Below are positions 293 to 57,900 of a stretch of 64,000 bases of DNA, in pieces; the stretch's first letter is position 1; every line of letters begins with the position of its first letter. The stretch is from positions 326,211 through 390,210 of the forward strand of contig CALSPG010000005.1 of NCBI GenBank assembly GCA_943788175.1, given 5' to 3'. The translations under genes were made by a program, and so were the position numbers. The DNA is from an uncultured bacterium (GTDB lineage Bacteria; Fidelibacterota; Marinisomatia; Marinisomatales; UBA1611). The notes beneath the pieces were generated by a model that did no database searches, was not told the origin of the DNA, and saw only the letters and a program-made list of their open reading frames with translations.

Positions 293-478
293 CTTCTCAG
301 AAACCCTCGTTTATTGACGGGGGTTTTTGTTTTTATATAAGTCTGTCAAAGTTATCATTCCTTATCATTGTATGACATTTATAATAATTGGACACATATT
401 TGGAGGACACAACCTAATTCAATTCTTATCTCAACCAAAGTAGGGGGGCATACCCCGTTTGATAGGGGGGGTAGGTAT
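241..478 (+). repeat. Left direct repeat (attL-like): 3' 52 nt of tRNA-Val plus about 185 bp downstream
   Basis: Manual alignment with 10207-10440 gives about 6 mismatches over the first ~147 nt. A more divergent ~40-nt patch with small indels follows, and then a conserved block (cctaattcaatt...aaccaaagtaggggggcataccccgtttgatagg...gtaggtat). Confidence 0.8.
301..334 (+). terminator. Rho-independent terminator after tRNA-Val (lies inside the left direct repeat)
   Basis: Stem CCCTCG (304-309) pairs with CGGGGG (318-323) with one G-U pair, followed by a T-run at 324-334. The same structure recurs at about 10268-10300. Confidence 0.6.
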
Positions 479-529
479 GTGTATATAAGACGCTCACACA
501 TTGAAGGGTAATTTTTTGTAGGTTTAGAT

Positions 530-682
530 ATGGAAATAATTAAGAAATTCTTTGATGGTATTGCTAAGTTTAATTTGAGGAAGTTGAAAGATGCTTTTCC
601 ATCAATAGCAGATAAGATTGATGTAAGACTAACTCCACCCGATGATGATGCATATTTTACTAACCTTTTAAAGGTCATATAA
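530..682 (+). pseudogene. Relic of the 3' end of a second tyrosine integrase
   Basis: It translates to ...AKFNLRKLKDAFPSIADKIDVRLTPPDDDAYFTNLLKVI*. This parallels the C-terminus of the island integrase (YAKFNLRKLRDDFPSLKERINLRLTPPSEDSYFTTLLNAI*). No upstream integrase body is present. Confidence 0.6.
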
Positions 683-860
683 GGAATCCTTTTTACTACA
701 TACTCGGTTTTAAAGAGGGGACGTACTTACCCATATGATAGTTAAGTGATTGGGTATTTATATAACCAAAATATTCTACAAATTTAATTCTATCAATATT
801 AAGTTTTCCCTCTGTTTAAACCTTTTTAATTAACATACCTATCATAAATATTTTTAGAAA

Positions 861-1780
861 ATGAATGAAGACATTAAACTTGCTATAAAAATTCGTTCCA
901 TTGAGGAAAATTTTCTTGAAATGTTTTCCGAGGGTTTATTAAATGGTACAGTTCATACATGCATAGGACAAGAGCTGTCAGGCGTAGGGATATCAAAATT
1001 TTTAAATAGAGACGATTTTGTTTTTAGTAACCATAGGTGCCATGGTCATTATATTTCATTTACTAAAAAATATAAAAACTTAATAGATGAACTAATGGGG
1101 AAAGAATCTGGAGTATGTGGTGGCATTGGTGGTAGTCAGCATATAGCGAGTGATAATTTCTTTTCTAATGGGCCTCAGGGGTCTTTGGCACCTGTTGCAG
1201 TTGGCGTAGCTGAAGGTTTAAAACGCAAAAAAAATAACTCTGTTTCTGTTTGCTTCATCGGTGATGGCACAATGGGTGAAGGTATAATCTATGAATCTAT
1301 GAACTTGATGTCCCTTTATGAATTGCCGATGATTTTGGTATGCGAAAATAACATGTATGCACAATCAACTAGTATAAAAAGTAATTTATCGGGCGATATC
1401 AATTTAAGAGCATCTTCATTTGGAATAAAAGTTTATGAACTTAATACTTGGGATTATGAGGGTCTAATAAAATCCTCTCAAGAGGCAATATCAAACGCAA
1501 GAAAAAATATCCCATCTTTCATTCATATTAATACTTACAGGTTAAAGGCTCATTCAAAAGGAGATGATAACAGAGATGGAAATGAAATTAAAGAATTCGA
1601 AAAAAAGATTTAATAAATAATTTTATCTTAAACAATGATGAATACGCTAAATATTATAAAGAAATAAAAGATAAAATTAGAGCTTATTCTAATTCAGTTA
1701 GTGAAAATTCTCAAATGGACAAAAATAAATATGTGGACGGTGAGAAGCTTAAACTATATAAAAAAATATTCATTATGTGA
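861..1780 (+). CDS. TPP-dependent 2-oxoacid dehydrogenase E1 component, alpha subunit (apparent frameshift in the A7 run at 1600-1606)
   Basis: TPP-binding motif GDGTMGEGIIYESMNLMSLYELPMILVCENN, plus HTCIGQE and GGIGGSQH. After the A7 run, the +2 frame continues with an E1-alpha-like C-terminus (KKDLINNFILNNDEYAKYYKEIKDKIRAYSNSV...) to the TGA at 1778-1780. Confidence 0.8.
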
Positions 1781-2783
1781 TGTGAGAATTGAAAAAAAGC
1801 AATCAGATTTAATTAATAATTATTTTCATGAAAGCATAAATGATGATAAAAATATTTTATTGATTGGTGAAGATATTAAAGATCCTTATGGCGGAGCTTT
1901 TAAAATAACAAAAGGGTTATCTGATAGATATAATGAAAATGTTATTTCCACCCCTATTTCTGAAGCTGCAATAGTAGGCATGGGTATTGGACTATCCATT
2001 CTAGGCTTTAAGCCTTACGTAGAAATCATGTTTGGAGACTTTATCACATATGCGTTTGATCAAATAGTTTCTAATGCTTCTAAGTTTTATCATATGTACA
2101 ATAAAAAGTACAATGTCCCTCTAGTTATAAGGACTCCCATGGGTGGAAATAGAGGCTATGGGCCAACACATTCACAAAGTATTGAAAAATTCTTCATTGG
2201 CGTAAATAACATTCAAATAGTCGCGCTTAATACATTATTGAAGCCAAAAGAAATATATGAATCAATTAAAAATTTTAAACATCTTACACTTTTAATCGAA
2301 AATAAAGTTGATTATGGAAGATTAATCAATTATTCGCCTAAATCTATTAATTATGAATTCAAAAAATCCGACTCTGATTATCCGATAATTACTGGAGAGC
2401 CTGTCAGTGCTAAAGCAAAAATAAGTGTTATTACTTATGGTGGTTCTATCCATCCTGTATTAGAAAGCATAGACGATATATTTTTTGAGTTTGAAGAATT
2501 TATTAAAGTAATTGTAATTACTAAACTGTATCCACTCGACATGGAAGAATTATCATTACTAACAAAGGATTCTTATTTTATAATTACGGTAGAAGAGAGT
2601 AATATTGAAGGTGGGTTTGGTTCAGAAATAATCTCTGGTCTTTCAGAAATAGAAAATGAAAAACAAAAAAAATACTTAAGGATTGGTTCGGAAAATGTAC
2701 CTATACCATCAACAAAAAAACTTGAAAGTGAGATTTTAGTTTCTAAAGATTTAATTGTCCGAAAAATGAAAGAAATGTTATGA
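1731..2783 (+). CDS. 2-oxoacid dehydrogenase E1 component, beta subunit
   Basis: LLIGEDIKDPYGGAFKITKGL, TPISEAAIVGMGIGLSILGFKPYVEIMFGDF and RGYGPTHSQS are typical of the transketolase-like pyrimidine-binding and C-terminal domains. The ATG at 1731 is preferred over the GTG at 1701. The stop overlaps the E2 start (ATGA). Confidence 0.85.
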   Translation: MWTVRSLNYIKKYSLCDVRIEKKQSDLINNYFHESINDDKNILLIGEDIKDPYGGAFKITKGLSDRYNENVISTPISEAAIVGMGIGLSILGFKPYVEIMFGDFITYAFDQIVSNASKFYHMYNKKYNVPLVIRTPMGGNRGYGPTHSQSIEKFFIGVNNIQIVALNTLLKPKEIYESIKNFKHLTLLIENKVDYGRLINYSPKSINYEFKKSDSDYPIITGEPVSAKAKISVITYGGSIHPVLESIDDIFFEFEEFIKVIVITKLYPLDMEELSLLTKDSYFIITVEESNIEGGFGSEIISGLSEIENEKQKKYLRIGSENVPIPSTKKLESEILVSKDLIVRKMKEML

Positions 2784-3979
2784 GCGTAATTGAAACTTTG
2801 AAAATCCCTCAAGATAATGTAAACGATAATGATGTGACTATATCAAGCATTTTCATTGAAAAGAATGATTATGTTGATGTAAATACTCTTGTTTTAGATT
2901 ATGAGACATCAAAAGCAAATTTTGAATTATTTATTACAAAGTCAGGCTATGTGCAGCTTAATTGCAAAGAGGGGGAGATTGTTAAAATTGGACAAACTAT
3001 TGGTATTGTTTCAGATGACAAAGATTACGTCCATCAATTTGAAGAAAATATAAATGAGAAAGAATTTTCTAAACAAACATTCAGCAAAAAAGCAGAAATT
3101 TTAATTAATGAAATGTCAATTGATAAGAGTGTCTTTAAGTATGAACAATTTGTCACTGAGGAAATTGTTAGAAATTTTTTAAATGATTCAAATGACATTA
3201 TACCAAGTGGTGACATAATTAAAATTTCTCCACGAAAATATTTTGAGATAAAAAACTTAACTAATGTTAGTAGGAACGGGCTCGTTTCTACAATTGAAAA
3301 AACAATCAATAGTTCTATAGTTGATACGGACTCAATTTATGAAAAAAATGAGTTTAAAGGGTCATTATCTATTTTGCTCATTAAAGTAATATCAGACTTA
3401 CTTAAAATAGAAAAATATAAACATTTAAATAGTTATTGCGACGGGGAAAATATCTATATTAATAATGATGTAAATTTTGGTCTAGCGCTCAATTTAGGTT
3501 CTGGTCTAAAAATAGGAGTTATAAAAAAATCTAATTCTTTATCAATTAATGAAATAGAATCAAAAACAATACAGTTAATAGATAAATACATTGATGATAA
3601 ACTTCAAAAAGAAGATATTGAGGATTTTTCAATTGTATTGACTGATTTAACAGAAAAAGAGATTGATAACTTTACACCTCTCATTACTTCTTCAAATACA
3701 ATAATGATTGGTTTATGTGGAGTAAAAGGTTCAACCCAAAGATTAATAATCTCATTTGATCACAGAGTTTCAGATGGATTAGAAATTGCAAATTTTATGA
3801 ATGATATTATATCAACTTTAAAAAATGAATATCCCAATTTTATTGATGAAAATAGTTGTTCATCGTGTTTAAAAACTATTGAAGAAGATAAAGAGCTTGA
3901 TACTCCGGGTCTAATAAGAATACTAGGTCATGATAAAACATTAAAATTCATTTGTAGAAATTGTTTAGAAGGATTTTAA
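2780..3979 (+). CDS. Dihydrolipoamide acyltransferase (E2)-like protein: lipoyl domain, E3/E1-binding-like segment, catalytic domain and a C-terminal CxxC...CxxC tail
   Basis: Lipoyl-lysine context LDYETSKANFEL (K45). PSBD-like segment FSKKAEILINEMSIDKSVFKYEQFVTEEIVRNFL. Catalytic motif ISFDHRVSDGLEIANF (DHRxxDG). Tail CSSC-x28-CRNC at 3857-3979. Confidence 0.85.
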   Translation: MSVIETLKIPQDNVNDNDVTISSIFIEKNDYVDVNTLVLDYETSKANFELFITKSGYVQLNCKEGEIVKIGQTIGIVSDDKDYVHQFEENINEKEFSKQTFSKKAEILINEMSIDKSVFKYEQFVTEEIVRNFLNDSNDIIPSGDIIKISPRKYFEIKNLTNVSRNGLVSTIEKTINSSIVDTDSIYEKNEFKGSLSILLIKVISDLLKIEKYKHLNSYCDGENIYINNDVNFGLALNLGSGLKIGVIKKSNSLSINEIESKTIQLIDKYIDDKLQKEDIEDFSIVLTDLTEKEIDNFTPLITSSNTIMIGLCGVKGSTQRLIISFDHRVSDGLEIANFMNDIISTLKNEYPNFIDENSCSSCLKTIEEDKELDTPGLIRILGHDKTLKFICRNCLEGF

Positions 3980-3981
3980 AC

Positions 3982-4203
3982 ATGAGCGATCTAATAATAA
4001 AAAAAATAGTTTCAGTATTTCTTAAAACTAAACCGAATAAAATTACAAATGATACCATAATTGACACCTCGGTAATACAGGGGAGTGTGTTGTTTCATAG
4101 AATGATTGCACGTATAAATGATTATTGTAATATTGAAATTGAAAATTATGATAAAATTCATACTTTCCAAGATTTATTAGATCAAATTAAATTAAAGCAA
4201 TGA
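3982..4203 (+). CDS. Small acyl/peptidyl carrier protein-like protein (73 aa)
   Basis: MSDLIIKKIVSVFLKTKPNKITNDTIIDTSVIQGSVLFHRMIARINDYCNIEIENYDKIHTFQDLLDQI has the size and helix pattern of a carrier protein. The candidate phosphopantetheine-attachment Ser is in the GS motif, followed by an amphipathic helix and an I-E-I turn. The ATG at 3982 lies 3 nt after the E2 stop. Confidence 0.6.
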   Translation: MSDLIIKKIVSVFLKTKPNKITNDTIIDTSVIQGSVLFHRMIARINDYCNIEIENYDKIHTFQDLLDQIKLKQ

Positions 4204-4207
4204 GTTT

Positions 4208-4528
4208 TTGTTAAGATTTGGTGTTGATATTATTGAAATTGATTCATTCCCATCTTTTATTAAAGGTAAGGATGATTCTTTCTTTTTGTATAATTATACA
4301 AAAAGCGAAATAGAATTTGCTAAAAACAAACTCAACCCGGATATTGAGTTTGTTAAAATGTTTTCAATTAAAGAGTCTCTTGTCAAGTCAGACAATTTAT
4401 TAGTAGGAAAGAATTTTAATAAAATAGAATTGTCATTTGTTGGGGATTGTTATATTTATAATGATTACAAGATAACTACATCAACTGCGAACAATAATTG
4501 CATATCATTTGTTTTAAGCACTACGTAA
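4208..4528 (+). CDS. AcpS-type 4'-phosphopantetheinyl transferase (106 aa, TTG start)
   Basis: N-terminus (M)LRFGVDIIEIDSF matches the AcpS G.D.vEi motif. YTKSEIEF and FSIKESLVKS match the AcpS FaaKEA..Ka motif. Confidence 0.65.
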   Translation: MLRFGVDIIEIDSFPSFIKGKDDSFFLYNYTKSEIEFAKNKLNPDIEFVKMFSIKESLVKSDNLLVGKNFNKIELSFVGDCYIYNDYKITTSTANNNCISFVLSTT

Positions 4529-4595
4529 TCTTTTGTAGGCATAATAATTGGTTTAATGTTATGGAGGTGTAAGTAGGGTATGCTTTAAAACGGAG

Positions 4596-4611
4596 GATGA
4601 ACAGATGAACA
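4596..4611 (+). repeat. Tandem octamer GATGAACA x2 (candidate iteron)
   Basis: Perfect direct repeat gatgaaca|gatgaaca in the 135-nt non-coding gap between the cargo operon and the 299-aa gene. The same octamer recurs at 8025-8074. Confidence 0.4.
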
Positions 4612-4663
4612 CTTATTACATATACTACCTACACTATTGAGATGTATGGATTTATATATAAAC

Positions 4664-5563
4664 CTAATTAAGGAGTTCGGGGTAGTCATCAATATCATCT
4701 AAACTATCACTTAAATATTTGGCATCATCGTTACGAAGTAAGTGAGGTGCATATAGAACTAATAGATTAAGAATAGTTTTATCAGTACATCCATAGTGTT
4801 CAGATAATTTCTTCTTATTGATGTTTCCATTCTTTTTAAATCTGATCGAGTCTACAACCTTTTCTAATCTTCCACTTTCTAAGTCTTCTTGAAATGCAAC
4901 TTCGTATCTTTTATTTTTGTATTTCTTTTTTAACTCACGCTCTTTTAATAAGGCTTGTGTTGTTACCCTTAATTGATTTTCTAAAACACTTGCAGAAGTA
5001 TGTACCACGGGTTTTTCTGTTTCAGATAAATTTGGTAAAGTATTTGCATCAAGTAAGGTAGGGGCAAAGTCTATCATAACACCCTTTACTTGAAACCAAT
5101 TTTCAAATTCTAATTTAGGTTTATAAAGAATATGTTCATCAGATATGAACTTGCTTCTGCCGTCATTAAAACTTTTAGGTAACATATTAATTATCCAAGT
5201 GTATATCATTTTATTAAAGGCTATACAAAAGTTCTTATTATCAAGATTCAAACCTTTGATGTAAGAATATTGATTATCAAGAGTAACTTGATGAACTAAT
5301 TTTTCTCCTTGCTTATATTTCCAAGTAGTTGGCTGATTGAAATAAACATTAAAAGAATACAATGGGAACTCATATTCTTCACCATAACCCCATTTCTGAT
5401 AATTCGCTTCGATACCTAATTCATTTTGTTGCTCATTATAGAACTGATTGAAGTCTTGAATCTTTTTATTGATTCTTGTTAAAACTCTTAATCTGTCTTT
5501 CTCATCTCCCCTTATCCATTCATCGGTATAGGGTTTTGTTATCTCTCCTATCAGTAAACTCAA
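4664..5563 (-). CDS. Hypothetical protein (299 aa, TTG start), island-borne
   Basis: Long ORF with a 4-nt overlap (TTGA) with the upstream small ORF. The C-terminal part (KKKLSEHYGCTDKTILNLLVLYAP) looks HTH-like. I do not recognise a family. Confidence 0.5.
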   Translation of the reverse strand: MSLLIGEITKPYTDEWIRGDEKDRLRVLTRINKKIQDFNQFYNEQQNELGIEANYQKWGYGEEYEFPLYSFNVYFNQPTTWKYKQGEKLVHQVTLDNQYSYIKGLNLDNKNFCIAFNKMIYTWIINMLPKSFNDGRSKFISDEHILYKPKLEFENWFQVKGVMIDFAPTLLDANTLPNLSETEKPVVHTSASVLENQLRVTTQALLKERELKKKYKNKRYEVAFQEDLESGRLEKVVDSIRFKKNGNINKKKLSEHYGCTDKTILNLLVLYAPHLLRNDDAKYLSDSLDDIDDYPELLN

Positions 5564-5826
5564 CCTTGTTTGTTATATACCCCACCCCAAGCAAAATTAA
5601 TAGGGAGTAGTTCTTTTAGTTTATCATTATCGATATAATCTGAATTAATCTTATTAGCCTCACACATTTTGTAGATCATTTCTATCAATCCTATTTGTTC
5701 ATAGGCATCTTGTAATGTAGGTGTTTTCTTTTCTTCCATATTTCTTTTTTCGGAGTAATTCCGAAATAATTCGGATTTCGGATGGCGCGAATTTATGATG
5801 TAATAGGGTATGGCACAACTAATCAA
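5560..5826 (-). CDS. Small hypothetical protein (88 aa as drawn; possibly 59 aa from the ATG at 5739)
   Basis: ORF translationally coupled to the 299-aa gene and divergent from the excisionase-like gene. No recognisable motif. Confidence 0.35.
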   Translation of the reverse strand: MISCAIPYYIINSRHPKSELFRNYSEKRNMEEKKTPTLQDAYEQIGLIEMIYKMCEANKINSDYIDNDKLKELLPINFAWGGVYNKQG

Positions 5827-5856
5827 GGTTGGTCATAAACCAATAGGAAATGAATA

Positions 5857-6075
5857 ATGGAAATAAGAATAGTTGAATTATTAAATGAAATAAGAACTCT
5901 AATACTTGGCAAGGTAAATGAGAGATGGTTGAATCTCAGAGATGTATCTGAATACACATCTGTTTCAGAAAGTACAATTCGTAGGGCAATCAAAAAAGGT
6001 GTCCTTAAATCATCAAACAAAACGGGAAGATTACTTTTTAAAGTATCTGATGTTGATAGGTGGCTGAACTCATAA
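5857..6075 (+). CDS. Excisionase/AlpA-type helix-turn-helix DNA-binding protein
   Basis: WLNLRDVSEYTSVSESTIRRAIKKGVLKSSNKTGRLLFKVSDVDRWL fits the excisionase-family HTH pattern. Its stop overlaps the primase ATG (TAATG). Confidence 0.7.
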   Translation: MEIRIVELLNEIRTLILGKVNERWLNLRDVSEYTSVSESTIRRAIKKGVLKSSNKTGRLLFKVSDVDRWLNS

Positions 6076-7996
6076 TGGATTACACCCATATCTTTGAAAG
6101 AGACTTCAAATAGAAGTTAATAAGCGAAGTGGGATTCAATGGCAAGGTAGATGTCCATTACCAAGCCACGAAGATAGAAAAGCATCCTTTTCTTGGAATA
6201 TAGATAACGGACTATGGAAATGTCACGGGTGCTTTGAATCGGGGAATGCTTATCAATTAGCAGAAATATTAGGTATAGCAAACCCATCCCAATATATAGA
6301 AAAAGAAACGGGGGGATATAGGAACAACCCCCCTCCAATACAGAAAGTTAATGTAATGAGTAGTGAAGAACTCGATGCACTTAAAAAAAAGTATCACTCA
6401 AATCTAACTGAACAAGATACCACATTTACCAATCCATATACAATACACGGAAGACGGGATGATGGGAATTTAGTTTTCTTTCTACCCGATGCAATTAAGC
6501 ATCACAAGTCTCAACCATATTGGGAGGGCAACAATAAGAAGTGTCAAATATTTGGTAGTGAATATCTTGCTGAGATAGATGCGAATGATACTCTATACAT
6601 ATTCGAGGGAGAAAAAGAAGTATGTTACTCTCCATACAAGGGAATCAGTTTCACGGCTGGTGCTGGAAATGTTCCCGAAGACTTATCTCAATTATACGCC
6701 TATAAAGATATTTGCATCATTCCCGATAATGATGATGCTGGATATAAGGGTGCTGATAAATGGGCAAAGGTCTGTTCAAGTAAATGGGGTGCATCCGTAA
6801 GGATTGCACAATGGGATGAGACACTCCCAAAAGGTTACGATGTGTATGATGATTATGTCCGTTCAACAAATGGAGATGAAGATTACATATTTGATGAAAC
6901 CGATAAGGCAATCAGCAAAGCAATCCCCTTTAAAGAAAATAACCACAAAACTGAAATTGGAGGTTTCAATACAATGGCAATAAACAACTACATACAAACA
7001 TATCAAGATGAAGAAGTAAGTCATATCATAGATGGATTATTAGTTAAAGGAGGTGTGACAATCCTTGCTGGTTCTGATGGAGTTGGTAAGTCTTGGTTAG
7101 GTTTACAAATGGGATTCTGTATCTCAAATGGAAATGAGTTCTTAGGTTGGGAAACAAAGAAGATGCCCGTTCTGCTTATTCAATTTGAATTAGGTACGGC
7201 TCAACTGAAAGATAGATTACAGATACTATCTAAATCCTATGATATGAATACTGATTTCAATGTGGTAGACCTATCAGATGAAGACCTCATCTTTACAGAT
7301 GCTTGGGATAAGATAGAACAGACTATTGATAATCAATCTTTTACGGATGGAGTTATCATTGTAGATAATCTATATGCAAGTACTGATAAGGATGTATCTC
7401 AAAATCACGAACTCAAACCTATCTTAAAAAAGATAAGAAAGTTGTGTGTGGAGTATGACAATGCTTTTGTCTTGATTGCTCATCACAATAAGAACGAAAA
7501 AGATGATGAGCCGATCCTGACAAAAAAACTGATAACGGGAGGGAAGACACTTACAAATTTCCCCAACAATGTTATTCAAGTTGGCAGTAGCAGTTTAGGT
7601 AATGACATCTTTAGAGGCAAGATTACAAAGATAAGAGATAAAGGTAGTGATTTAATAAACATTCCTTTTATCCTCAACTTTGACCAAGACACTTGTGTTT
7701 TTTCAAGGGGTGTAATCATTGTATCTGAGATACTTCATTGCCAACCCATTAAAAAGAGATGGGAATATGAATTGCTTATAGACTTCCTTGCCTATCAATC
7801 TAATGAGGCGTTTACTCGTTCAAGGTTATGGCAATTCCTATCTACAAAAGACGGATGGGAAAAGACTCCATCAAATCAAACTAAGGTTACAAGGTTTCTA
7901 AGTAGAATGAAAACTTGGGGATTCATTATAGAGCGTGAATACAATCTGTATGAATTAAGCCTTGAAGATATAAGGAGGCTGGAAGAAGAAAGATGA
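6075..7996 (+). CDS. Bifunctional primase-helicase (CHC2 zinc finger, TOPRIM and RecA/DnaB-like P-loop), with an apparent -1 frameshift near 6098-6111
   Basis: MDYTHIFERDFK* in one frame. The next frame continues (no start codon) with ...GRCPLPSHEDRKASFSW...WKCHGCFESGNAY (CHC2 finger), in frame with the 546-aa ORF. TOPRIM motifs are YIFEGEKEV and IIPDNDDAGYKGADKW. Walker A is GSDGVGKSW, Walker B is VIIVDNL, and LIAHHNKN is also present. Confidence 0.8.
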
Positions 7997-8024
7997 TTTA
8001 CGGGGGGTGAATATAGTGTTTAAG

Positions 8025-8074
8025 TGTTCATCTTAGGTGCTTATGTATTCCCCTCTCAAATGAACAGATAAACA
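8025..8074. repeat. GATGAACA-type octamers (one inverted, two direct degenerate copies)
   Basis: tgttcatc at 8025-8032 is the reverse complement of gatgaaca. aatgaaca (8059-8066) and gataaaca (8067-8074) are in tandem. The block lies just downstream of the primase-helicase stop. Confidence 0.4.
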
Positions 8075-8109
8075 GACTTAACCATACATAGCAAGAGGAT
8101 TTAAAGATA

Positions 8110-8454
8110 ATGGAATATAAAGTAATGGACTTTCAAAAATATACAGACTACTTAGGTGATAGGTGGGATGATACTATTGAAATGGGAAAGTTTGATACCT
8201 ATGAAATGGCATTGGAATCGAATGAGTATCATTGAGCAAGACCTTGCAAACGGGTAAGAATGGATTGCCTAAAGATAGTACTTTAGAACTAATTCAATTC
8301 GTAACAGAGTCACATCATACGGGTGGTAATAAGTCTTAATGAAGATGGCTGGATTGTGGTACTACACAAACCCGATATTGTTACAGATGTTACAAATGTT
8401 ACAGATGGCTCAGAAGTAGGTACTCAAGCACACGCTGAACAGGAGGTAAACTAG
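8110..8454 (+). pseudogene. Degraded ORF of unknown function (at least 3 frame changes)
   Basis: Coding-like segments MEYKVMDFQKYTDYLGDRWDDTIEMGKFDTYEMALE / NRMSIIEQDLANG / KNGLPKDSTLELIQFVTESHHTGGNKS / EDGWIVVLHKPDIVTDVTNVTDGSEVGTQAHAEQEVN* lie in successive frames. The track shows no ORF of 60 aa or more between 7997 and 9187. Confidence 0.45.
8376..8405 (+). repeat. Three direct 9-bp-spaced copies of TGTTACA
   Basis: attgttaca gatgttaca aatgttaca gat, with TGTTACA at 8379, 8388 and 8397. It lies within the degraded ORF and codes IVTDVTNVTD. Confidence 0.35.
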
Positions 8455-8456
8455 GG

Positions 8457-8799
8457 CTATCTCTCACTCAGAACAGAGAGACATCGACTTGTCAAAACTT
8501 GACATTGAAGATGATATTTTCCCCCCTAAAAAAGGTGCAGATGAGGATAGTAACTCCCCCAATTTTGGCAGAGGTCAGCATCCTAATTCAAAGAAGAATC
8601 TGAAGCCATTATGAGAAAGGTGTTAGTGGTAATCCATCGGGTAAACCAAAAAAGGTAGCACAATTAAAAGAGGTCTTAGATTGGTGGGGTAGGCTTAACT
8701 GAATATGATAATTGGTCTTGGGATAAATACACCAATAGAGCAAATGGTAGTCAAAGGTATATGGAAAAGAGCAACCTCATGGTAATAGACAAGACTTAG
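8457..8799 (+). pseudogene. Relic of a small phage-type protein with an NLKP...G.SGNP.G.PK motif (DUF5681/small-terminase-like)
   Basis: ...GRGQHPNSKKNLKPL* is followed after a frame change by YEKGVSGNPSGKPKKVAQLKEVLDWWGRLN*, and after another by EYDNWSWDKYTNRANGSQRYMEKSNLMVIDKT*. I recall the motif from phage DUF5681/TerS-like proteins. An HMM search is needed to confirm. Confidence 0.4.
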
Positions 8800-8990
8800 A
8801 TATTTGCTATCACTTGGATTACTTGATTCAGACAAGTTTAAAGACTAATTTAGGAACGCTTAAATCAACATGTTAAATATACCTAAATACAATTCCCCCT
8901 ATGAGATGTGGTCAGCAGTAATGCCCCAAACGATTTCAACATGTTATCGTAAGCCATCTTTGGGGGGATGTAGGTAATAGGAGTCAGCAT

Positions 8991-10106
8991 ATGGCTACAT
9001 ATATAAAACAAAGAAAACGTCAGTACTCATCCCGTATTCAATGGAGAGACTGAGAATGGTAATAAGAGAGAACGAAAAATACCTCTTAAAACTTCTTCTA
9101 AATCTGTTGCAGTAGTCAGAAACAATGAAGTAACGAAAGTTGAAGATACTATTATCGATGGAGATAATTGGTCTTTTGCTTGGATGAATGATGATGGTAA
9201 AAGTTAAACTAATTAGATTATCTATTAGCGAGGCTTATGAAGAATATAGGATTGTCCAAAACATAGATGGAGTGAGAGCGTCTACGCTCGATCGAGTTGA
9301 TAACTCTATGAAGACACTATATAAAGTCTTTGGAGAGAACTATCCAATAGCATCATTAACATACTCGCATATAGAACAATTCAAAGAGTATTGGCACGGA
9401 ACACATCAACCAACTACAATGAATATTAATCTATCAAAGATTAAAGCGTTTCATAATTGGTGTCTTAAAAAAAGATATACTATAAAAGATGTAGAGTTTA
9501 AGATGGTTAAGGAAGATGAAAAGCCTCCACAATATCTAACAGATGCTGAGTTTAAAAGCATAATGAAATGTGATATAATAGATGACCATTTCAAGAAAGC
9601 ATTTGTATTCTATTTGTATACGGGTTGTAGAAAAACAGAACCATTTATTGCAGACTTAAATGGTAATTGGCTTACAATCAAATCAACAGATGCTAAGTCT
9701 CACAGAACTCGTGATATTGAATTAAATGAAGTAACTAAGGGCATAGTTCAAGATATGAGAGATAGGTATCATTACTATATGGATGAATATGCACAGAAAC
9801 CAAGAAATGTGATTATGAACTATGGTAAGCAGTTCAAAAAGGCTTGTAGATACTTAGGTATCAAGGGCAAGACCTTACATTCATTGAGACATACTTATGC
9901 AGTTAGACGCTGGGCAATCACGGGAGACATTAAGATGGTATCTCAAGAGATTGGTCATAGTCTCAGTAGTGATGACAGAGAAGTATGCTAAGTTCAATCT
10001 TAGAAAGTTAAGAGATGATTTCCCCTCATTAAAAGAGCGTATCAATCTTAGACTTACTCCACCAAGTGAAGACTCATATTTTACTACGCTTTTAAATGCT
10101 ATTTAG
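8991..10106 (+). pseudogene. int: Tyrosine recombinase (phage integrase family) with at least 3 frameshifts
   Basis: N-terminus MATYIKQRKRQYSSRIQWRD, then a shift to ENGNKRERKIPLKTSSKSVAVVRNNEV...AWMNDDGKS, then a shift into the 267-aa ORF. That ORF carries box I (TGCRKTE), box II (HSLRHTYA) and GHS. A further shift precedes SVVMTEKYAKFNL, which holds the catalytic Tyr. The breaks are not at long homopolymers. Confidence 0.8.
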
Positions 10107-10206
10107 AGGCATAAAATGGCAAAGAGGACACGTTTTGGAGGATACACCTAATAGACCTAAAATGCTAAGTGTAGTAATATATGTAGTTAGGAGTTAAAAA
10201 CGCTGA

Positions 10207-10440
10207 GAGCGTTGCCCTTACAAGGCAGATGTCGGGAGTTCGAATCTCTCAACGCCCACTCCTCAGAAACCCTCGTTTATTGACGGGGGTTTTTGTTTTT
10301 CTACAAGTCTGTCAAAGTCGTCATTCCTTATCATTGTATGACATTTATAATAGGAACTTTGGAGGCTACCAAGCCCTAATTCAATTACTTATTTCAACCA
10401 AAGTAGGGGGGCATACCCCGTTTGATAGGTCGGTAGGTAT
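10207..10440 (+). repeat. Right direct repeat (attR-like): partial tRNA-Val (3' ~52 nt) plus about 180 bp downstream
   Basis: gagcgttgcccttacaaggcagatgtcgggagttcgaatctctcaacgcccac... duplicates 241-478. It lacks the 5' acceptor and D arm, so it is not a functional tRNA. Confidence 0.8.
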
Positions 10441-10792: not shown

Positions 10793-10930
10793 TTTATTAT
10801 TTTCCTACTTTTGTTTATTTATTCAATTATTACTTATTTAATTGAATACTGCAATTTAATACTGTTATTACATAAATAAATTTAATTATTATTTAAGTCT
10901 ATAAAAAAATATATTGCATAGTTTAATCAC

Positions 10931-10951
10931 ATTATCACAATTTTTGATAAT
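10931..10951. promoter_or_regulatory. Inverted repeat ATTATCA-N7-TGATAAT overlapping the start codon of the His/Cys-rich gene (candidate metalloregulator operator)
   Basis: attatca (10931-10937) and tgataat (10945-10951). ATTATC/GATAAT hexamers are the building blocks of Fur-type boxes. In AT-rich DNA this could arise by chance. Confidence 0.25.
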
Positions 10952-11273
10952 GAAAAAATCGATAAATAAATTCATTTTAACTGGGATAGCTCTTTTATTT
11001 TTTAGCTCGATTTTTCATTTAGATCATACTCCGGCGCACGAGCATCAAAATGGATACAACATATGCAATATAGGATGTAAGGATATTGAGCATCATTCTT
11101 ATTCTCATCAATGTGAAAAGTGTTTAAGCAAAACCCAAAGATATGTAAGTGTAAATCTTTTTGATTTATCACTTCATAACAACTCAACATCATTTGACAA
11201 TCCTAAAGACATTACTTTTTCTAAATTCATAAATTTTAATTCAAATAAAAGAGCCCCACCCATTATCCTTTAG
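10950..11273 (+). CDS. Small His/Cys-rich membrane-anchored or secreted protein, paralog of 15045-15392
   Basis: MKKSINKFILTGIALLFFSS (signal or TM), then HLDHTPAHEHQNGYNICNIGCKDIEHHSYSHQCEKC, and ...KRAPPIIL at the C-terminus. The pattern H.H...GY.ICN..C....HH.....C.KC...RAPP is shared with the paralog. Confidence 0.6.
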   Translation: MKKSINKFILTGIALLFFSSIFHLDHTPAHEHQNGYNICNIGCKDIEHHSYSHQCEKCLSKTQRYVSVNLFDLSLHNNSTSFDNPKDITFSKFINFNSNKRAPPIIL

Positions 11274-11463
11274 ATTTTATTAAAGGAGCAACAGTTTCAG
11301 TAAAAATACATTTTGTATGCAATGAGTGCATGCCAGTTTCGTATTTGTCGTAAACATCTATCATCAATTTTTCAGTAATGATTATAATTGAATTATGATT
11401 GAGAAATTTGATGCTCCTAAATCTTTGTTCAAAAATATCTTTTGAAAATCATAAAGGAAACAA

Positions 11464-11877
11464 ATGATGTTAAATTCAATAAATATTTCGATAAAAAATA
11501 TTAAAGTAGATAGTCTTGGCGCTTTGGTAAGCGGCTTATGCATGTTGCATTGTCTTGCAACGCCAATCTTTTTTATTGCTTCAGCTTGTTCAGCAGCATG
11601 TTGTAACTTTGCTCCAACTTGGTGGCAATCATTAGATTATATTTTTCTAGTTATTTCTCTTTTTGCTGTAATCCAAGCATCTAGAAATTCAAATAGTTCA
11701 TTGGTTCCTAGGGGGCTACTAGCTAGTTGGTTAGGGTTAGGTTTTTTTATATTGAACGCTAAGTTTGGTTGGATTAGCGTTCATCAGAATATTAAGTTTA
11801 TTCCTGCGTTTCTTCTTATTGGATTTCATCTATACAATATGAAGTACTGTCAATGTGAGAGCAATGAATGTTGCTAA
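11464..11877 (+). CDS. MerC-like membrane protein with a Cys-rich C-terminus
   Basis: GALVSGLCMLHCLATPIFF is the MerC-domain-type C.LHC motif in TM1. There are four predicted TM stretches, a CSAACC segment, and a tail CQCESNECC. Confidence 0.6.
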   Translation: MMLNSINISIKNIKVDSLGALVSGLCMLHCLATPIFFIASACSAACCNFAPTWWQSLDYIFLVISLFAVIQASRNSNSSLVPRGLLASWLGLGFFILNAKFGWISVHQNIKFIPAFLLIGFHLYNMKYCQCESNECC

Positions 11878-11911
11878 ATTATTTAATGTTTTTTTAATGA
11901 GAGGATGAAGA

Positions 11912-12160
11912 ATGAAAGAAAATGAATTTCCACTTCTAAAGATTACAAATATTGATTGGGATCCAGATCATGAAGAATTTGAAAAATTACCCAAAAAATT
12001 AGAGCTTAAATGGGATAAAAAAAATTGGACCATCGATGATGTTTCAAACTGGTTAAGTCTTGAATTTGACTGGGTTTTTAACAGTCTTAATATTAATCAA
12101 GTTGGAATTTGGGAGAATGGTGGTTGTAGTTGCTGCGCTGGCGGATGTAGTTGCTGCTAA
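11912..12160 (+). CDS. 82-aa acidic, Trp-rich protein with the C-terminal tail GGCSCCAGGCSCC
   Basis: The ORF has an RBS-like gagg upstream. The last 13 residues contain 6 Cys in two GGCSCC repeats. It ends 4 nt from the convergent TonB-dependent receptor stop. Confidence 0.55.
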   Translation: MKENEFPLLKITNIDWDPDHEEFEKLPKKLELKWDKKNWTIDDVSNWLSLEFDWVFNSLNINQVGIWENGGCSCCAGGCSCC

Positions 12161-12164
12161 ATTT

Positions 12165-14393
12165 TTAAATACGAAACCTGTAATTAATATTGAATCCTAG
12201 CCCGGGTTCAGGCATTATCATTTTAATTTTAGATAAATGATTATAATAGGTTTCATTTAATATATTAGATACTTGAAATATTAATTGATGCATGCTATTA
12301 TTTTTACTAAAAGTATACGTACAGTTATAATTAAAAAGTTTGTATCCATTTGTTGGCGTTTCAAACTCACCAAGTTTATCTTGATTAGAAACTAACAAAA
12401 ATTCAAAAGTGTTATTTAAAAACAGAATATTTTTTTCTATTTGAAATCGAATCAAATCTGGAGGAATGTATGCCAGTGACATATCGTTCTGTAAATCTAA
12501 ACCTCGACATATTGAGGCATTTCCTAATAGGTTAAAATATTTTAGATTAATCTTAAAATTTGGCTCAAACCCATAAATCAAGGTTTCAAGGCCAAATATT
12601 TTATATTTATATAACCAACCTGAAGACCCACTACCCCACTCAATCCAATCGGCCCCAGTTTCGTAACCATCTCCCATTTTTTGAAAAATGTGAAAATTAG
12701 AGCTATAGTTTATATAACTGGTAAGATTGAATTCATTTTTATCATTAAAAAAAGAAAAAGTATTTTCAAATCCTAATGTATTCTCCTGATCAAGCTTTGG
12801 TTCGCCAATCTCATACGAATAGCTTCCTAGATGGGGACCATCAGAATATAGATCTTCGATTTTTGGAGCGCGGCTTGTGTACAGAATATGATTGTATATT
12901 GAATAATTTTTTCTCTTATTTAGTGCTGATATACCAAAAGAAAACAATATAAAATCACGTTTTTTTACATCTTCGGGTTCAATATTAGAAAAGAAAGTAT
13001 CTTCAACACTAGGGTTGATTGATCGGTATTCAATCCTTCCAGAAAATTGCAATTTAAGGTTATCATACTTTCTATTATTTATGCCAAATACAGCTAATTT
13101 TGTTTCATTGGAATTTGGAGTCCATATAAAACCGCGTGTAAGGTAGTCTCTATTTTGATAGTTAATACCAATTTTTAATGTTTCTCCGCTCAGTAAAGCA
13201 TTCAAATAAATAATATTTTGTCTCAAATCAACAGATGCATAATTAGCATCCTTAACAAATTCCTTGTGCCCATATCTAATGTATCCTTGTTCAATATCTA
13301 AAATATTAAATGAAAAAAGTTTAATATCGCTGTGATACATTAATTTTTGGCTTTGATTTTTTAGTTCTAAGTCAACTCCATTAATATGTCCCTCTGGACT
13401 TCCTGGGATTCCATAATCCATTGAAAAATCTTTTATTTGAAGGGAAGTGAAATTTTTGGCACCAAACTTTGTTACAGCTATTGAAAGGTCGTTTTTTATT
13501 AATGCTGTATTTTTTAGAGAACCCAAGGGAGAAGATTGATCATTAGATTTTCTATTAGTTATTGACGTAAAAAGTTGATAGGTGTTTAATGGAATACTAA
13601 TATTTGTTCCTAAAAGCTTTGACTGGTTCGAGCTCTCATGTCCAAAAAATACATTATATAAAGCTCGTTCTATCTTTTTTTGACTATTCATTGGAGATAG
13701 TATGTTAATTATACCAGCAATAGTGTTTGACCCATAGGCTAAGGTCTCTGGTCCTCGCATTACTTCTATACCTTCTGCAGAAGAAATTTCCATGCTCACC
13801 GCGTGGTCGGCAGTAGTGTTAGATAAATCACCAAGTTCAAAACCATCAGAGGTAATTAGGAATCTATCCCCTGAGTATCCTCTTAGAATAGGTCTTTGGG
13901 TTGCTTGCCCGGATGATCTCATCGCAACACCAGACTCCCCAGTAAGAGTGGTCGCAAGGTCGCTATTAATGTTTTTTTTCAATCTACTACCAATCATCGA
14001 TATTGAAGATGGGGCTTTATTCTTATTGCTCTCTTCATGTGAATGGACTGTTACTCCGCTCATTTGGATTGTTTTAGGAGTCAAAAAAACTTTGTATTTA
14101 TTCTTTATATTTTTGTGACTTACAAATAAGGTTGTATCCTTGAACCCAATCATCGAAATCTTTATTTCATTTTTCTTTAAATTATCTAAAGAGAGTGAAA
14201 AAGTTCCTAATTCACTGGAGACTGTACCAAGATCACTATCTACAATATAAACATTAGCACCAGATATAGGTTTCAGATTACTATTGTCAAATATTACTCC
14301 TTTAATTGATGCTACTTCTTGAGCAGAAAGTGAGTTGATAAAAAATAGAGCTATATATAGAGGTAGATAACGCACGAAAAGAAGGAGTATCAT
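12165..14393 (-). CDS. TonB-dependent receptor (CarboxypepD_reg-like N-domain, plug and barrel)
   Basis: IKGVIFDNSNLKPISGANVYIV (carboxypeptidase-regulatory-like). Plug motifs PILRGYSGDRFLITSDG and IEVMRGPETLAYGSNTIAGIINI. Long beta-barrel ending NINYRFRI. Confidence 0.85.
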   Translation of the reverse strand: MILLLFVRYLPLYIALFFINSLSAQEVASIKGVIFDNSNLKPISGANVYIVDSDLGTVSSELGTFSLSLDNLKKNEIKISMIGFKDTTLFVSHKNIKNKYKVFLTPKTIQMSGVTVHSHEESNKNKAPSSISMIGSRLKKNINSDLATTLTGESGVAMRSSGQATQRPILRGYSGDRFLITSDGFELGDLSNTTADHAVSMEISSAEGIEVMRGPETLAYGSNTIAGIINILSPMNSQKKIERALYNVFFGHESSNQSKLLGTNISIPLNTYQLFTSITNRKSNDQSSPLGSLKNTALIKNDLSIAVTKFGAKNFTSLQIKDFSMDYGIPGSPEGHINGVDLELKNQSQKLMYHSDIKLFSFNILDIEQGYIRYGHKEFVKDANYASVDLRQNIIYLNALLSGETLKIGINYQNRDYLTRGFIWTPNSNETKLAVFGINNRKYDNLKLQFSGRIEYRSINPSVEDTFFSNIEPEDVKKRDFILFSFGISALNKRKNYSIYNHILYTSRAPKIEDLYSDGPHLGSYSYEIGEPKLDQENTLGFENTFSFFNDKNEFNLTSYINYSSNFHIFQKMGDGYETGADWIEWGSGSSGWLYKYKIFGLETLIYGFEPNFKINLKYFNLLGNASICRGLDLQNDMSLAYIPPDLIRFQIEKNILFLNNTFEFLLVSNQDKLGEFETPTNGYKLFNYNCTYTFSKNNSMHQLIFQVSNILNETYYNHLSKIKMIMPEPGLGFNINYRFRI

Positions 14394-54791: not shown

Positions 54792-54917
54792 TTAATTAGT
54801 GGCAAGTTTTACCATTTAATACTTATTATTTTTCGGTACAGAGTCTTAGATTATAACCTTTGCTGATAGAATTGTATTTTATGTGCAATCAAAAATTTCA
54901 TTTTGGAGGTAGTTTTA

Positions 54918-57900
54918 ATGTTTAAATATTTAAATAATGCGTTTTTGTCTCTTGCGCTTGTCTTCTCCTTTATTGGGGCGCAGGATGTTGAGCTTACAAT
55001 AGTAGACACTTCGTTTGCTGGTTACACGGATGAAATCATTGTGCCTATTTTAATCTCAAACCCGAACAATAATGTCGGTGGAGTTCAATTTGATGTATCA
55101 GTAAGTCCTAACATGGTGAGTTTAACAGGTGTTTCATCCGTGGGTAATGCTTCTAGTTTTTCTGCTGCTTACAATGCGTTAAGTGATGGTAGTTCAAGAG
55201 TAGTATTTTATAATGGGAGTGATCCAAGTGGCCTAAACCCTGGTACAGATGCTAGAGTTCTAAATCTCCATTTTGGAGGCACAGACGTGTTGTCTGCTGT
55301 TCTTGAAATTAAATTAAACAATTTAATTGTAAGTGATGGAGAGGGTGGAGTTCTTACTTCTCAATCGTCATCTGGAAATCTTACAATTGGTGATGTAGTA
55401 TACTTAAGCGGATCAACTTCTACTGGGGATGTTGGTGAAACCGTTTCTATTGACTTTAGTATTAGTAATACAGGCGCAGTCGGAGGAGTTCAATTCGATG
55501 TTAAAGATAGCCCAAACTATTTAAGTTTAGTCTCAGTTGCTACAACAGCTAGGACTGCAGAATTTTCTGCTGATTTTAATAATATTAATGATGGTGACAC
55601 TTCACGAATTATTCTTTTTAGCTCTGATAATGTTAACCTAGCACCAGGTACAGGTCCGGTACTTTCAGCAACTTTTGAAATTGTAAATAATGCCTATGCT
55701 GATTCTGTTTCTGTTTTTATGGAAAACATCCTGGTTACAGATGGTGTTGGTGGTAGTTATTGGATAGCAGCGGCTGACTCTGGTACTGTAGCAGTTTACC
55801 CCGGGTATATCGAAGAGCCTTCTAACTTGCAAGCTATTGATGGTCAAGATGCCTATGTTGCATTGTCATGGAACCCGCCATCAGGCCCTATACCAGATAA
55901 CATAACTGAAGATTTTGAAGATGGGATTCCAGACGATTGGACACTTACAACTAGTTCTGCGCAAGGGTGGTATTTAACTACAGATTGCACGAGTGAATGG
56001 TGGACAGTTCCTGCACACACAAACTATATGTGTTCTAATGATGACCAGGCAAACGATGACGGAGCGCTGGATTATATGGTTACTCCAATGCTAAACGTTA
56101 GCGGAGCTGCAAGTGTCATACTAAACTTTGATTCATATTTTGATGGGGCCTATGGTCAAACTGCTTCTATTGGTGTAAGTGATAATGGAGTAGATTTTAC
56201 AGAGGTGTATCCGTTAGTTGCTGGAACAGAGTGGATTAATGAGACAGTAGATTTAACGCCTTTTATTACTGGCGATAATTTGTATATTTTATTTCATTCA
56301 AATGATAATGCAGCTTGGGCGTCTGGATGGGCGGTTGATGATATTTCAATTTCTTTTGAAACTCGAGTAATTCCTGAGAGATTAGTACATTATAATTTAA
56401 CAGATCTGGGTGAGTGGGTAGTCAGCGCTCCTAAAGAGGATGTCATGAACAAGTACGGAGGCGGAATTCCTTTTGCAGATAGAATTGATTTAGACAACCC
56501 AGTTAATCTTAATAACCAACGTCCTGTAGCTATTGATGCCTATAAAGTTTACAAATCACTAAGTGAGACGTCTGATTTTGAAGAAATTGTTGAGCTAGAA
56601 GCCAGTGTGACTTCTTATACAGACGAAGATGTCGTAAATAATACTGCCTACTATTATTATGTGACAGCTATATATCCTGATGGTTCTGAATCTGTACCGA
56701 CAAGTACTGTATCAGCAACCCCGGTTGAATGGATAGAGTGTTACATTAGTGATGGTGGCTCTTTGACTGGCATAGCCGATACAATAGATATCTCCGTTAA
56801 TAATGAAAGTTTATTGGGTGGTTTATTTTTTGAAATTGAAGATTTCCCAGATGTCCTTGTTGGAGAGAGTGTTTTGCCAGCTGAAAGAACGACTGGAACA
56901 AATGGACAACCTTCATGGACCTTTTCATTATTAGATGATAATGGAAAAATTTCAATTGCAGGCTTTGGACCTCTAGCGGGTGCAGCTGCTCTTGAGCCAG
57001 GTAATGGCCCTGTATGTAGAGTCGTCGTTCGACCTCAAGGAGACCAAGCTCAGACTTTAACACTTACAATGACAGATGTTCAGATTCAAGACACTAGTAA
57101 CCCACCAGTACAATTAAACTGGACAGCAGAAACTGCAGCTTATGAAGTGGGAATTGAAACGCAATATATTATGTTAACTGATGGAAACGCAGCGCCTGGT
57201 GCTCAGCTAAGCTCATCAATGTGCTTAGTAAATACACAAGATGTTTATGGAATTCAAGTTGAATTTGTTGCTGATCCGCCATTCGTAAGCGGGTCGGGTC
57301 TACAAGTAACTGATTTACTAGACTTAAGCACTTGGTCAGTTTCTTCTCAACAACTTGGTAATACATTTACACTATTACTTTTTGATAACACTCTTAGTAA
57401 TCCTGTACCTCCAGGATACTGGTACTTAGGCGAGGTTTTAATAGATGTCCTTCCTGGATCTCCTGAAGATTTTATTGTTGATGTTGAATATGGAGAGATG
57501 ATTTTGTCCGATGCTTATAATCAGCCTATGATATCTGTTGGTTTACCTTCAGAAGTTTATATAGGTGCGCCTCCAGTTTCTTACAGTATCCACAACGTAG
57601 AAGGTCTACTAACTCCAGGGGGTGAGGGCTCTTTTGAAGTTCACATGACGAATACAGAAACAGTTGGTACTATGTCTTTTGAAATTGAAGATGCTCCAGA
57701 GTATCTAACGGTTACTTCTGTAGAAGCCGTTGGTAGATTTGCAAATGGAATTATTGACGGAAGCACGGGTGAAGACTCTAATAATGAGAACTTTTATTTT
57801 CTTGGATATGACTTTACTGGTGGAATTCCTGAAGGTGACGGTCCAATAATAAAAGTAAATGTTCAAATGTCTCAAAATATAAATAACCCAAATGTTATGC

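Follow-up and report, generated by a model that had tools for sequence, protein, structure and literature searches.

What does a bacterium gain from a dehydrogenase-like enzyme pair whose genes are followed by those for a private carrier protein and the enzyme that would activate it? The question is raised by a 64,000-nucleotide (nt) stretch of DNA from an uncultured marine Marinimicrobia bacterium (contig CALSPG010000005.1), here called the window. Positions 861-4528 of its + strand hold a gene cassette for a thiamine pyrophosphate (TPP)-dependent E1, a lipoyl-bearing E2, a small carrier protein (CP) and a phosphopantetheinyl transferase (PPTase), carried on an island at a tRNA gene. We regard it as likely that these genes represent a carrier-loading cassette for glycan acylation, and that the copy in the window is an orphaned, recently inactivated remnant without acyltransferase genes. 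An earlier, sequence-only reading of this DNA had seen a self-contained module of five packed genes with a possible role in defence. Related loci are numbered L001 to L105 below, and related proteins carry P-numbers (P0013, P0104, P0314 and so on).

Genes and motifs of the cassette

Five open reading frames (ORFs) on the + strand make up the cassette as it stands in the window, at 861-1613, 1701-2783, 2780-3979, 3961/3982-4203 and 4208-4528. The first matches the Pfam family E1_dh (8e-44), the second Transket_pyr (3e-22) and Transketolase_C (2e-11), the third 2-oxoacid_dh (1e-23) together with a weak lipoyl match, and the fifth ACPS (9e-8; 32.5 bits, against a gathering cutoff of 25). The fourth (3982-4203) has no Pfam match, PP-binding included, and a weak match to an acyl carrier protein (ACP) model in NCBIfam (1e-4). 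Of the families expected by the sequence-only reading, these were found and two, E3_binding and PP-binding, were not. The motifs it had named are all present in the sequence: GDG...NN and HSQS in E1 (as IGDG...CENN and THSQS), ETSKA and DHRVSDG in E2 (as YETSKA and FDHRVSDG). In NCBIfam, the top-ranking models for the E1 and E2 ORFs are those of pyruvate dehydrogenase (PDH) E1alpha, E1beta and E2, with scores far under the equivalog cutoffs.

The first two ORFs are parts of a single gene. The span from 861 to 2783 (+ strand) is 1923 nt, exactly the length of the fused E1alpha-beta gene that encodes a 640-amino-acid (aa) product in relatives, and E1 is a single alpha-beta ORF of about 640-700 aa in nearly all related loci with a complete gene (more than 80 loci). 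Frame translations, together with the Pfam and NCBIfam matches, show how the gene is broken in the window. Frame 0 meets a TAA at 1611, the homologous reading lies in the -1 frame over 1607-1765 (DLINNFILNNDEYAKYYKEIKDKIRAYSNSVSENSQMDKNKYVDGEK), and it is back in frame 0 from 1767. DNA alignment with L101 places both lesions in runs of A: the run at 1600-1606 has 7 A in the window and 8 A in L101, and the run at 1760-1766 has 7 A in the window and 6 A in L101. This locus is 97% identical to the window, encodes an intact 640-aa E1 and has a matching upstream tRNA fragment and integrase remnant. Likewise, the cluster of proteins with at least 90% identity to the 250-aa ORF of the window consists mostly of 640-aa proteins, among them P0104, which differs very little from the window. 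Two frameshifts therefore account for the 88-nt 'gap' and for the split of alpha and beta into two ORFs. An alternative genetic code for the in-frame stops was also considered and was ruled out, as the homologous reading sits in another frame. The E1 of the window is disrupted, and the unit comprises four genes, not the five with a complete E1 that had been claimed.

E2 (2780-3979, + strand) was assigned from Pfam, alignment, an AlphaFold2 (AF2) model and profile matches in the Protein Data Bank (PDB). It carries the lipoyl residue Lys45, the catalytic His328 within FDHRVSDG and a C-terminal CxxC...CxxC motif; in an alignment of 25 family members, T43, S44, K45, D327, H328, R329 and G333 are invariant. 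The AF2 model (pLDDT 83.6) comprises a lipoyl barrel (residues 1-78), a disordered linker, a catalytic domain (146-350) and a C-terminal beta-hairpin mini-domain, and it places a small helical subdomain (103-137) between two flexible linkers. The label 'PSBD-like' given earlier to this region is plausible for the modelled subdomain; PF02817 (E3_binding) goes undetected on the window E2 and on the family E2s, and canonical E2s do match it. The E2 tail (residues 351-399, window 3830-3979) forms a CxxC...CxxC mini-domain in most polysaccharide-type E2s of several phyla, is missing from the RenI protein discussed below, and has been lost from some marine relatives with E2 forms of 353-359 aa. This mini-domain might dock the carrier protein or E1.

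The two small ORFs had been read as a carrier-like protein and an AcpS-type PPTase, and both assignments have held up. The 73-aa CP (3982-4203, + strand) rests on a family profile, an AF2 model and Foldseek. Its predicted phosphopantetheine site is Ser35 (GSVLFHRM), and the family shares the motif [GS]S[IV]xxHRMY with an invariant serine. Compared with the PDB, the family profile matches ACPs only, over their full length, with Ser35 aligned to the phosphopantetheine serine of ACPs; the AF2 model has a pLDDT of 86, and the top 50 of 50 Foldseek matches are ACPs (TM 0.69-0.82). The PPTase (106 aa, TTG start, 4208-4528, + strand) follows from the Pfam ACPS match and from the family alignment, in which G5 and D7 (the AcpS aspartate, GxD) and K55, E56 and K60 (KE...K) are invariant. 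In agreement with the sequence-only reading, no E3 gene was found in the island by ORF list and Pfam, and Pyr_redox_2 occurs in 2 of 64 downstream neighbours of related loci.

Recurrence and genomic neighbourhoods

A scan of species representatives (one genome per species) returned 80 cassette loci, in which the best match to the window E2 has 49% identity. A metagenome scan with a single E2 query returned three loci only, including L101, and an exhaustive CP profile search over 1.84 billion proteins yielded 198 CP representatives, most of them CP-PPTase fusions. A census of 88 loci with our own hidden Markov models for E1, E2, CP and PPTase found E2 in all 88, E1 in 86, PPTase in 84 and CP in 79; the gene order is E1-E2-CP-PPTase throughout. 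Most Chitinophagaceae and other Bacteroidota have CP and PPTase as one protein of ~245 aa, and P0314 (625 aa) unites a lipoyl domain, an E2 catalytic domain, CP and ACPS on one chain. These fusions, and the presence of the other three genes beside E2 in 79-86 of the 88 loci, support the flow proposed by the sequence-only reading, from E1 via lipoyl-E2 to a dedicated holo-carrier protein. Pairwise dN/dS values against relatives range from 0.05 to 0.24; the cassette has been under purifying selection over its history.

Several of the CP-PPTase fusions (L039:11319-12056, L019:11296-12051, L029:11308-12051 and L011:11235-12014) have a hydrophobic end of ~20 residues. To judge from its sequence, this end may anchor the fusion proteins of Chitinophagaceae and relatives in the membrane by their tail, and the acyl-carrier would then be close to membrane acyltransferases.

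The sequence-only reading had described the cassette as self-contained. Elsewhere it stands in ordinary polysaccharide loci beside glycan acyltransferases. Among 83 non-redundant loci, an acyltransferase of the hexapeptide, AT3 or MBOAT class lies within 7 kb of the cassette in 67, and a glycosyltransferase of family GT2 or GT4 in 64; most of the loci without such genes are on short contigs. Of the genes directly upstream, 18 of 68 are AT3 and 15 of 68 GT4, and 28 of the 64 directly downstream are GT2. Wzx, glycosyltransferases, a DegT aminotransferase and sulfotransferases surround the cassette in the marine relatives L001-L004, and the P0013 locus has it amid Wzx and glycosyltransferases; glycosyltransferases, an aminotransferase and CMP-sugar synthases lie near it in L006 and L007. 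In Niastella caeni it is flanked by GDP-mannose dehydratase, GT4, GT2, an asparagine synthase-like amidotransferase and CpsB, and the hexapeptide gene just upstream of E1 scores 213.6 bits against a WcaF-family cutoff of 192.

The closest relatives on long contigs, L089 and L090 (E2 identity 72%), continue from the PPTase gene into genes for a 485-aa MBOAT and a 302-aa N-terminally anchored protein. The same succession is found in L001-L004 and L008, where the MBOAT is followed by a 326-aa protein like the 302-aa partner. The sole NCBIfam match of the cassette MBOAT is DltB (TIGR04091; 4.7e-44, full length, under the cutoff). In L001 the MBOAT ends in FIYFQF, which fits FxYxxF, the acyl-shuttle motif of bacterial MBOATs (PMC12148441).

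A variant architecture carries the same association further. In L098:8001-11017 (IMG/VR UViG_3300032283_000778), E1alpha-beta is followed by a 345-aa protein in which a lipoyl domain and linker are fused to a hexapeptide sugar acyltransferase of the NeuD/PglD type; the E2 catalytic domain, CP and PPTase are missing, and the neighbours are glycosyltransferases. P0074 and P0092 are lipoyl-hexapeptide fusions of the same kind. Context and variant architecture together point to acyl supply for glycan decoration. Supply of a precursor for secondary metabolism was considered as well and is disfavoured, as genes for non-ribosomal peptide synthetases (NRPS) or polyketide synthases (PKS) are not nearby: the window has none, and the flanks of related loci gave one AMP-binding match among 68 upstream genes. 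Literature searches found no description of a PDH-like/ACP module that is located in polysaccharide loci or is coupled with an MBOAT.

Related systems and a proposed route to glycan acylation

The sequence-only reading had likened the cassette to the glycolicacyl-ACP-forming enzymes QncN/QncL/QncM of quinocarcin (Qnc) and naphthyridinomycin biosynthesis, and this analogy has been strengthened by homology to enzymes of tetrahydroisoquinoline antibiotic clusters. The intact family E1alpha-beta of L089 is 43% identical to RenH, a protein of the renieramycin (Ren) cluster, over 643 aa (517 bits, end to end), and canonical E1 subunits in the PDB reach at best ~105 bits each against the family E1. 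Family E1 and RenH have in common the motif YRLKAHSKGDD, at a position where canonical E1alpha has YRxxGHSxSD. The best annotated match of the E2 in the plasmid collection is RenI (2e-25, 87% coverage), which RenH adjoins; E2 and RenI are 26% identical (BLASTP 2e-33). According to PMC13249901, RenH and RenI are homologous to the quinocarcin enzymes, by which a glycolyl unit is made from ketose sugars on an ACP. The scleric acid (Scl) cluster has a five-protein set of E1alpha, E1beta, E2 and ACP plus a PPTase (PMC6335953), and the general idea of E1/E2 pairs that prime a carrier protein in place of CoA has been put forward in work on pepteridine (PMC5384830).

With these systems the cassette shares a TPP-dependent E1 (alpha and beta, fused in RenH as in the cassette), a lipoyl-E2, a small dedicated ACP and the lack of an E3 gene, and a PPTase is present in the scl cluster (SclQ1-4 and SclP) as in the cassette. 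By analogy, the loading of a carrier protein instead of CoA (PMC6335953, PMC5384830, PMC13249901) would extend to the cassette also. The differences lie in the neighbours, which are glycosyltransferases and glycan acyltransferases and not NRPS or PKS genes; in the PPTase, which is AcpS-type (~106 aa, often fused to CP and, in Chitinophagaceae, with a hydrophobic tail), whereas SclP has 213 aa; and in the zinc-ribbon-like CxxC...CxxC tail of most family E2s, which RenI lacks. The logic of E1/E2 carrier-protein loading, to which the cassette is homologous, is thus already known, from only a handful of antibiotic pathways; what sets the family apart from them is its glycan context, its AcpS-type and often fused PPTase, and its E2 tail.

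From these comparisons a route can be proposed. On E1, a C2 or acyl unit would first become bound to TPP; going by the homology to RenH, the donor would be a ketose phosphate and the unit glycolyl, with a 2-oxoacid as the alternative donor. E1 would then move the unit reductively onto lipoyl-Lys45 of E2, and the His328 domain of E2 would transfer the acyl group to CP, onto the phosphopantetheine thiol at Ser35, and not to CoA. The PPTase would make holo-CP, and housekeeping enzymes would take care of lipoylation and of the re-oxidation of dihydrolipoamide. The acyl-CP would serve as donor for the glycan acyltransferase encoded beside the cassette in other genomes: a DltB-like MBOAT with its membrane-anchored partner in the closest marine relatives, and a WcaF-family hexapeptide or AT3 enzyme in Chitinophagaceae and others. 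A surface polysaccharide would thereby acquire an O- or N-acyl decoration.

Extended to the family, this becomes a proposal that we hold tentatively: that the cassette serves a widespread form of glycan decoration, in which E1-E2 would assemble a small acyl group other than acetyl on a private CP (glycolyl derived from a sugar phosphate being the most plausible), and an acyltransferase, whether a DltB-like MBOAT, an AT3 or one of the WcaF/NeuD type, would receive it from the CP. If true, it would be the first carrier-protein-dependent MBOAT route outside Dlt, within the searches made, and unusual acyl groups, the possible N-glycolyl nonulosonic acid of Tannerella forsythia among them, would gain a genetic explanation. 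This organism has N-glyceroyl and possibly N-glycolyl nonulosonic acids, for which the modifying genes are unknown (PMC5378307). A link between the cassette and these groups is speculation.

In loci with the MBOAT (L089/L090, L001-L004 and L008), the arrangement resembles the Dlt system, which serves the D-alanylation of teichoic acids, with a small CP and a PPTase followed by a DltB-matching MBOAT and a membrane-anchored protein at the position of DltD; the logic by which an acyl group passes from a carrier protein through an MBOAT to an extracytoplasmic acceptor has been summarised (PMC12148441). The two differ in their loader, which is an E1/E2 pair in the cassette and not the adenylating DltA, the cassette having no AMP-binding gene. 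The cassette MBOAT has a C-terminal FxYxxF like PatA (in the L001 copy), whereas Dlt has the DltX microprotein. Furthermore, the MBOAT partner shows no detectable DltD or SGNH signature, and MBOAT and partner genes are not in the window. In the pepteridine cluster of Photorhabdus, a PDH-like E1 and E2 have been proposed to prime a carrier domain, again with no E3 in the cluster (PMC5384830), and its E2-NRPS fusion parallels the E2-CP-PPTase fusion of P0314. There, the acceptor is an NRPS T-C module acting on a pterin, whereas the CP of the cassette is free-standing or fused to PPTase and stands in a glycan context. With canonical PDH, branched-chain and acetoin dehydrogenases, the cassette shares the E1 alpha/beta fold, the TPP motif, the lipoyl-lysine and the DHRxxDG histidine; it differs from them in its fused E1, the lack of a PF02817 match and of an E3 gene, its obligate CP and PPTase, and profile scores well below the equivalog level.

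The island, the rival explanations and the meaning of the family

The sequence-only reading had also placed the cassette in a tRNA-integrated element, and this is confirmed by a tRNA-Val gene at 219-293, a 96% direct repeat, and genes for an integrase, an HTH_17 excisionase and a primase-helicase, a P4-like set. The tRNA-Val(TAC), found with ARAGORN on the + strand, is the integration target. The left repeat (240-466) consists of the 3' part of the tRNA and ~170 nt of flank and is 96-98% identical to the right copy (10206-10429), detected in a repeat search, which holds a partial tRNA-Val 3' end with flank and marks the end of the island. A remnant of the C-terminus of an older integrase (530-682, + strand) repeats 9986-10105, the 3' end of the present integrase gene, at 73% DNA identity with a similar translation; the cassette module, bounded at ~762 and ~4659, begins ~80 nt downstream of it.

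To the right of the cassette, a gene for a protein of 359 aa in relatives (4664-5739, - strand) is broken by two frameshifts, close to 5582 and 5534, and a tblastn search with P0147 recovers it as three high-scoring segment pairs spread over three frames. The gene for the excisionase-like HTH_17 protein (5857-6075, + strand; Pfam 4e-11) is intact and 100% identical to the L102 copy. The primase-helicase gene (6098-7996, + strand; CHC2 zinc finger and AAA_25, 640 aa in relatives) has lost its 5' end to a stop codon, its first start codon now being at 6356. A DUF5681-like gene (8110-8842, + strand; 242 aa in relatives), located by tblastn with the L102 protein, is fragmented over three frames with only 41-46-aa ORFs left. 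The tyrosine integrase gene (9052-10106, + strand), assigned from sequence searches, repeats and relatives, has frameshifts near 9195-9203 and 9960. Capsid and packaging genes were not seen. A promoter and terminator scan of 400-6400 gave counts no higher than in shuffled sequence, with a tool that holds no promoters of this phylum.

The stretch 4713-8839 of the window is 96-98% identical to small elements that are intact in Tara and other assemblies (L102-L105). These carry integrase, an 89-aa gene, DUF5681, the 640-aa primase-helicase and HTH_17 excisionase, and in a divergent arm the 359-aa gene followed by genes of 130 and 420 aa. In the window, the cassette stands where L102-L105 carry the 130-aa and 420-aa genes (L102:5695-7355; no family matches), so that this end of the element is a variable cargo slot. 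The cassette again lies near integrase remnants or tRNA-derived repeats in L089, L096, L099 and L101, with the left-repeat sequence itself flanking it in L089, L096 and L101, and in L088 it is followed by a different integrase. The cassette is a recurrent passenger of a tRNA-Val integration hotspot. The recurrence beside integrases that the sequence-only reading had envisaged is thus found at these loci; family-wide, the cassette lies mainly in polysaccharide loci.

Beyond the island, the window contains further genes that we mention in passing. A gene group just outside the island (10914-14393) looks metal-related. Its members are an ORF of 119 aa (10914-11273) that is rich in His and Cys and looks secreted, a membrane protein resembling MerC (11464-11877; Pfam 2.5e-17), an 82-aa ORF (11912-12160) that ends in GGCSCCAGGCSCC and has an internal 19-nt repeat, and a TonB-dependent receptor in convergent orientation (12165-14393). 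At positions 1-186 lies the 3' end of a gene; its product, judged by eye, resembles the C-terminus of a Lon protease. T9SS-type sorting domains occur at 54903-58298 and 58549-60768.

The lesions raise the question of whether the island has decayed or has been misassembled. They number two in E1, two in the 359-aa gene, the lost primase start, at least two in DUF5681 and two in the integrase, or at least nine over ~9.3 kb (~1 per kb). In the window, E2, CP, PPTase and the excisionase are intact, and the other island genes examined are disrupted. As assembly errors, the frameshifts would leave an intact cassette that feeds acyl-CP to an acyltransferase encoded outside the window. This we consider rather unlikely, although several observations favour it: both E1 lesions are changes of one nucleotide in poly-A runs, the lesions of the 359-aa gene lie beside short homopolymers, the remaining three cassette genes are intact with an exact copy of the CP-PPTase region in another assembly, and strain-variable islands can defeat consensus polishing. 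Also relevant to this alternative is L096:11920-13118, the E2 of a cassette with 89% identity on a metagenome contig from long reads polished with Pilon. It is itself split into ORFs of 202 and 201 aa, so that indel noise is present in some assemblies of the region. Against it stand the sheer number of frame-disrupting lesions in so short an island, one integrase lesion outside any homopolymer, and the loss of the primase start through a stop codon. Furthermore, the chromosomal genes examined over the remaining ~54 kb are all full length; those with counterparts in the protein collection are as long as their relatives, and several of their products recur as exact sequences in up to 62 other contigs. 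A programmed -1 frameshift is the least probable explanation that we considered. The first lesion leaves an in-phase A_AAA_AAG heptamer (1601-1607), which matches the slippery sequence of dnaX. It is followed one codon later by the 0-frame stop, and the -1 frame is open and homologous to 1765, ending 1 nt before a possible GTG start; slippage would thus give separate alpha (306 aa, TGA at 1778-1780) and beta (GTG at 1782) subunits. However, relatives with 90-97% identity have A8 and A6 and a plain 640-aa ORF, and with many other frame-breaking lesions in the island, decay or error is the simpler explanation.

Two further rivals concern the function of the cassette. A self-contained accessory or anti-phage module on a satellite-like island, as the sequence-only reading had entertained, would fit the position of the cassette in the variable cargo slot of a small integrase/primase/excisionase element, where L102-L105 carry two unrelated genes, and its recurrence beside integrase remnants at the same tRNA-derived site in L089, L096, L099 and L101. 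Yet a PADLOC-DB v2 scan of nine island and cassette proteins (E <= 0.01) returned no match, and a scan of 2.9 million viral contigs in IMG/VR returned a single partial one (L098), in a context of glycan genes. The family at large resides in chromosomal polysaccharide loci, and E1 is disrupted in the window. Searching a phage collection with E2 by tblastn gave only weak matches, to ordinary aceF/sucB in prophage-containing records. A defence or hijack role is thus very improbable. Slightly less probable again is that the cassette encodes a catabolic dehydrogenase of the ordinary 2-oxoacid or acetoin type, producing acyl-CoA, with the small ORFs incidental. The best named profiles are indeed those of PDH E1alpha, PDH E1beta and E2, but at scores that fall far short of the equivalog cutoffs, and E3 is absent. 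In ~80 loci the genes for CP and PPTase accompany that for E2, in P0314 all three form one chain, the nearest relatives load carrier proteins in antibiotic clusters, and the neighbours are glycan genes rather than catabolic ones.

The reading of the cassette as a carrier-loading unit for glycan acylation, with an orphaned and probably inactive copy in the window, has its own weak points, gathered here. Domain identities, gene order, conservation, fusions, genomic contexts and lesions are directly observed. For the polysaccharide-type members, acyl transfer to CP, the nature of the acyl group and the glycan target are what we infer, as is the inactivity of the window copy. Genes for hexapeptide enzymes and glycosyltransferases abound in polysaccharide loci of any kind, so that their adjacency is suggestive and not specific. 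The 43% identity to RenH leaves the substrate unfixed, and NCBIfam ranks PDH E1 models over transketolase. The MBOAT partner of 302-326 aa has no Pfam, NCBIfam or PDB match, and it may be called DltD-like by its position and N-terminal anchor only. Among the ORFs scanned in the 64-kb window there are no MBOAT, AT3, WcaF-type or polysaccharide genes, and no acceptor can be named within this genome. Finally, both E1 lesions are changes in homopolymer length; in a region that varies between strains, they may be errors left standing in the assembly, and the copy may then be intact.

The copy in the window shows how such modules travel and decay at a tRNA hotspot in marine Marinimicrobia, and it matters less than the family to which it belongs. 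This locus led to ~200 CP clusters and 80 loci, with the machinery inside polysaccharide clusters near three classes of glycan acyltransferase. If our reading of the family holds, it would explain the origin of some of the unusual acyl decorations on capsules, O-antigens and glycoproteins, provide candidate acyl donors beyond acetyl-CoA for MBOAT and AT3 enzymes, and represent a compact enzymatic route from central metabolites to acyl-carrier proteins.

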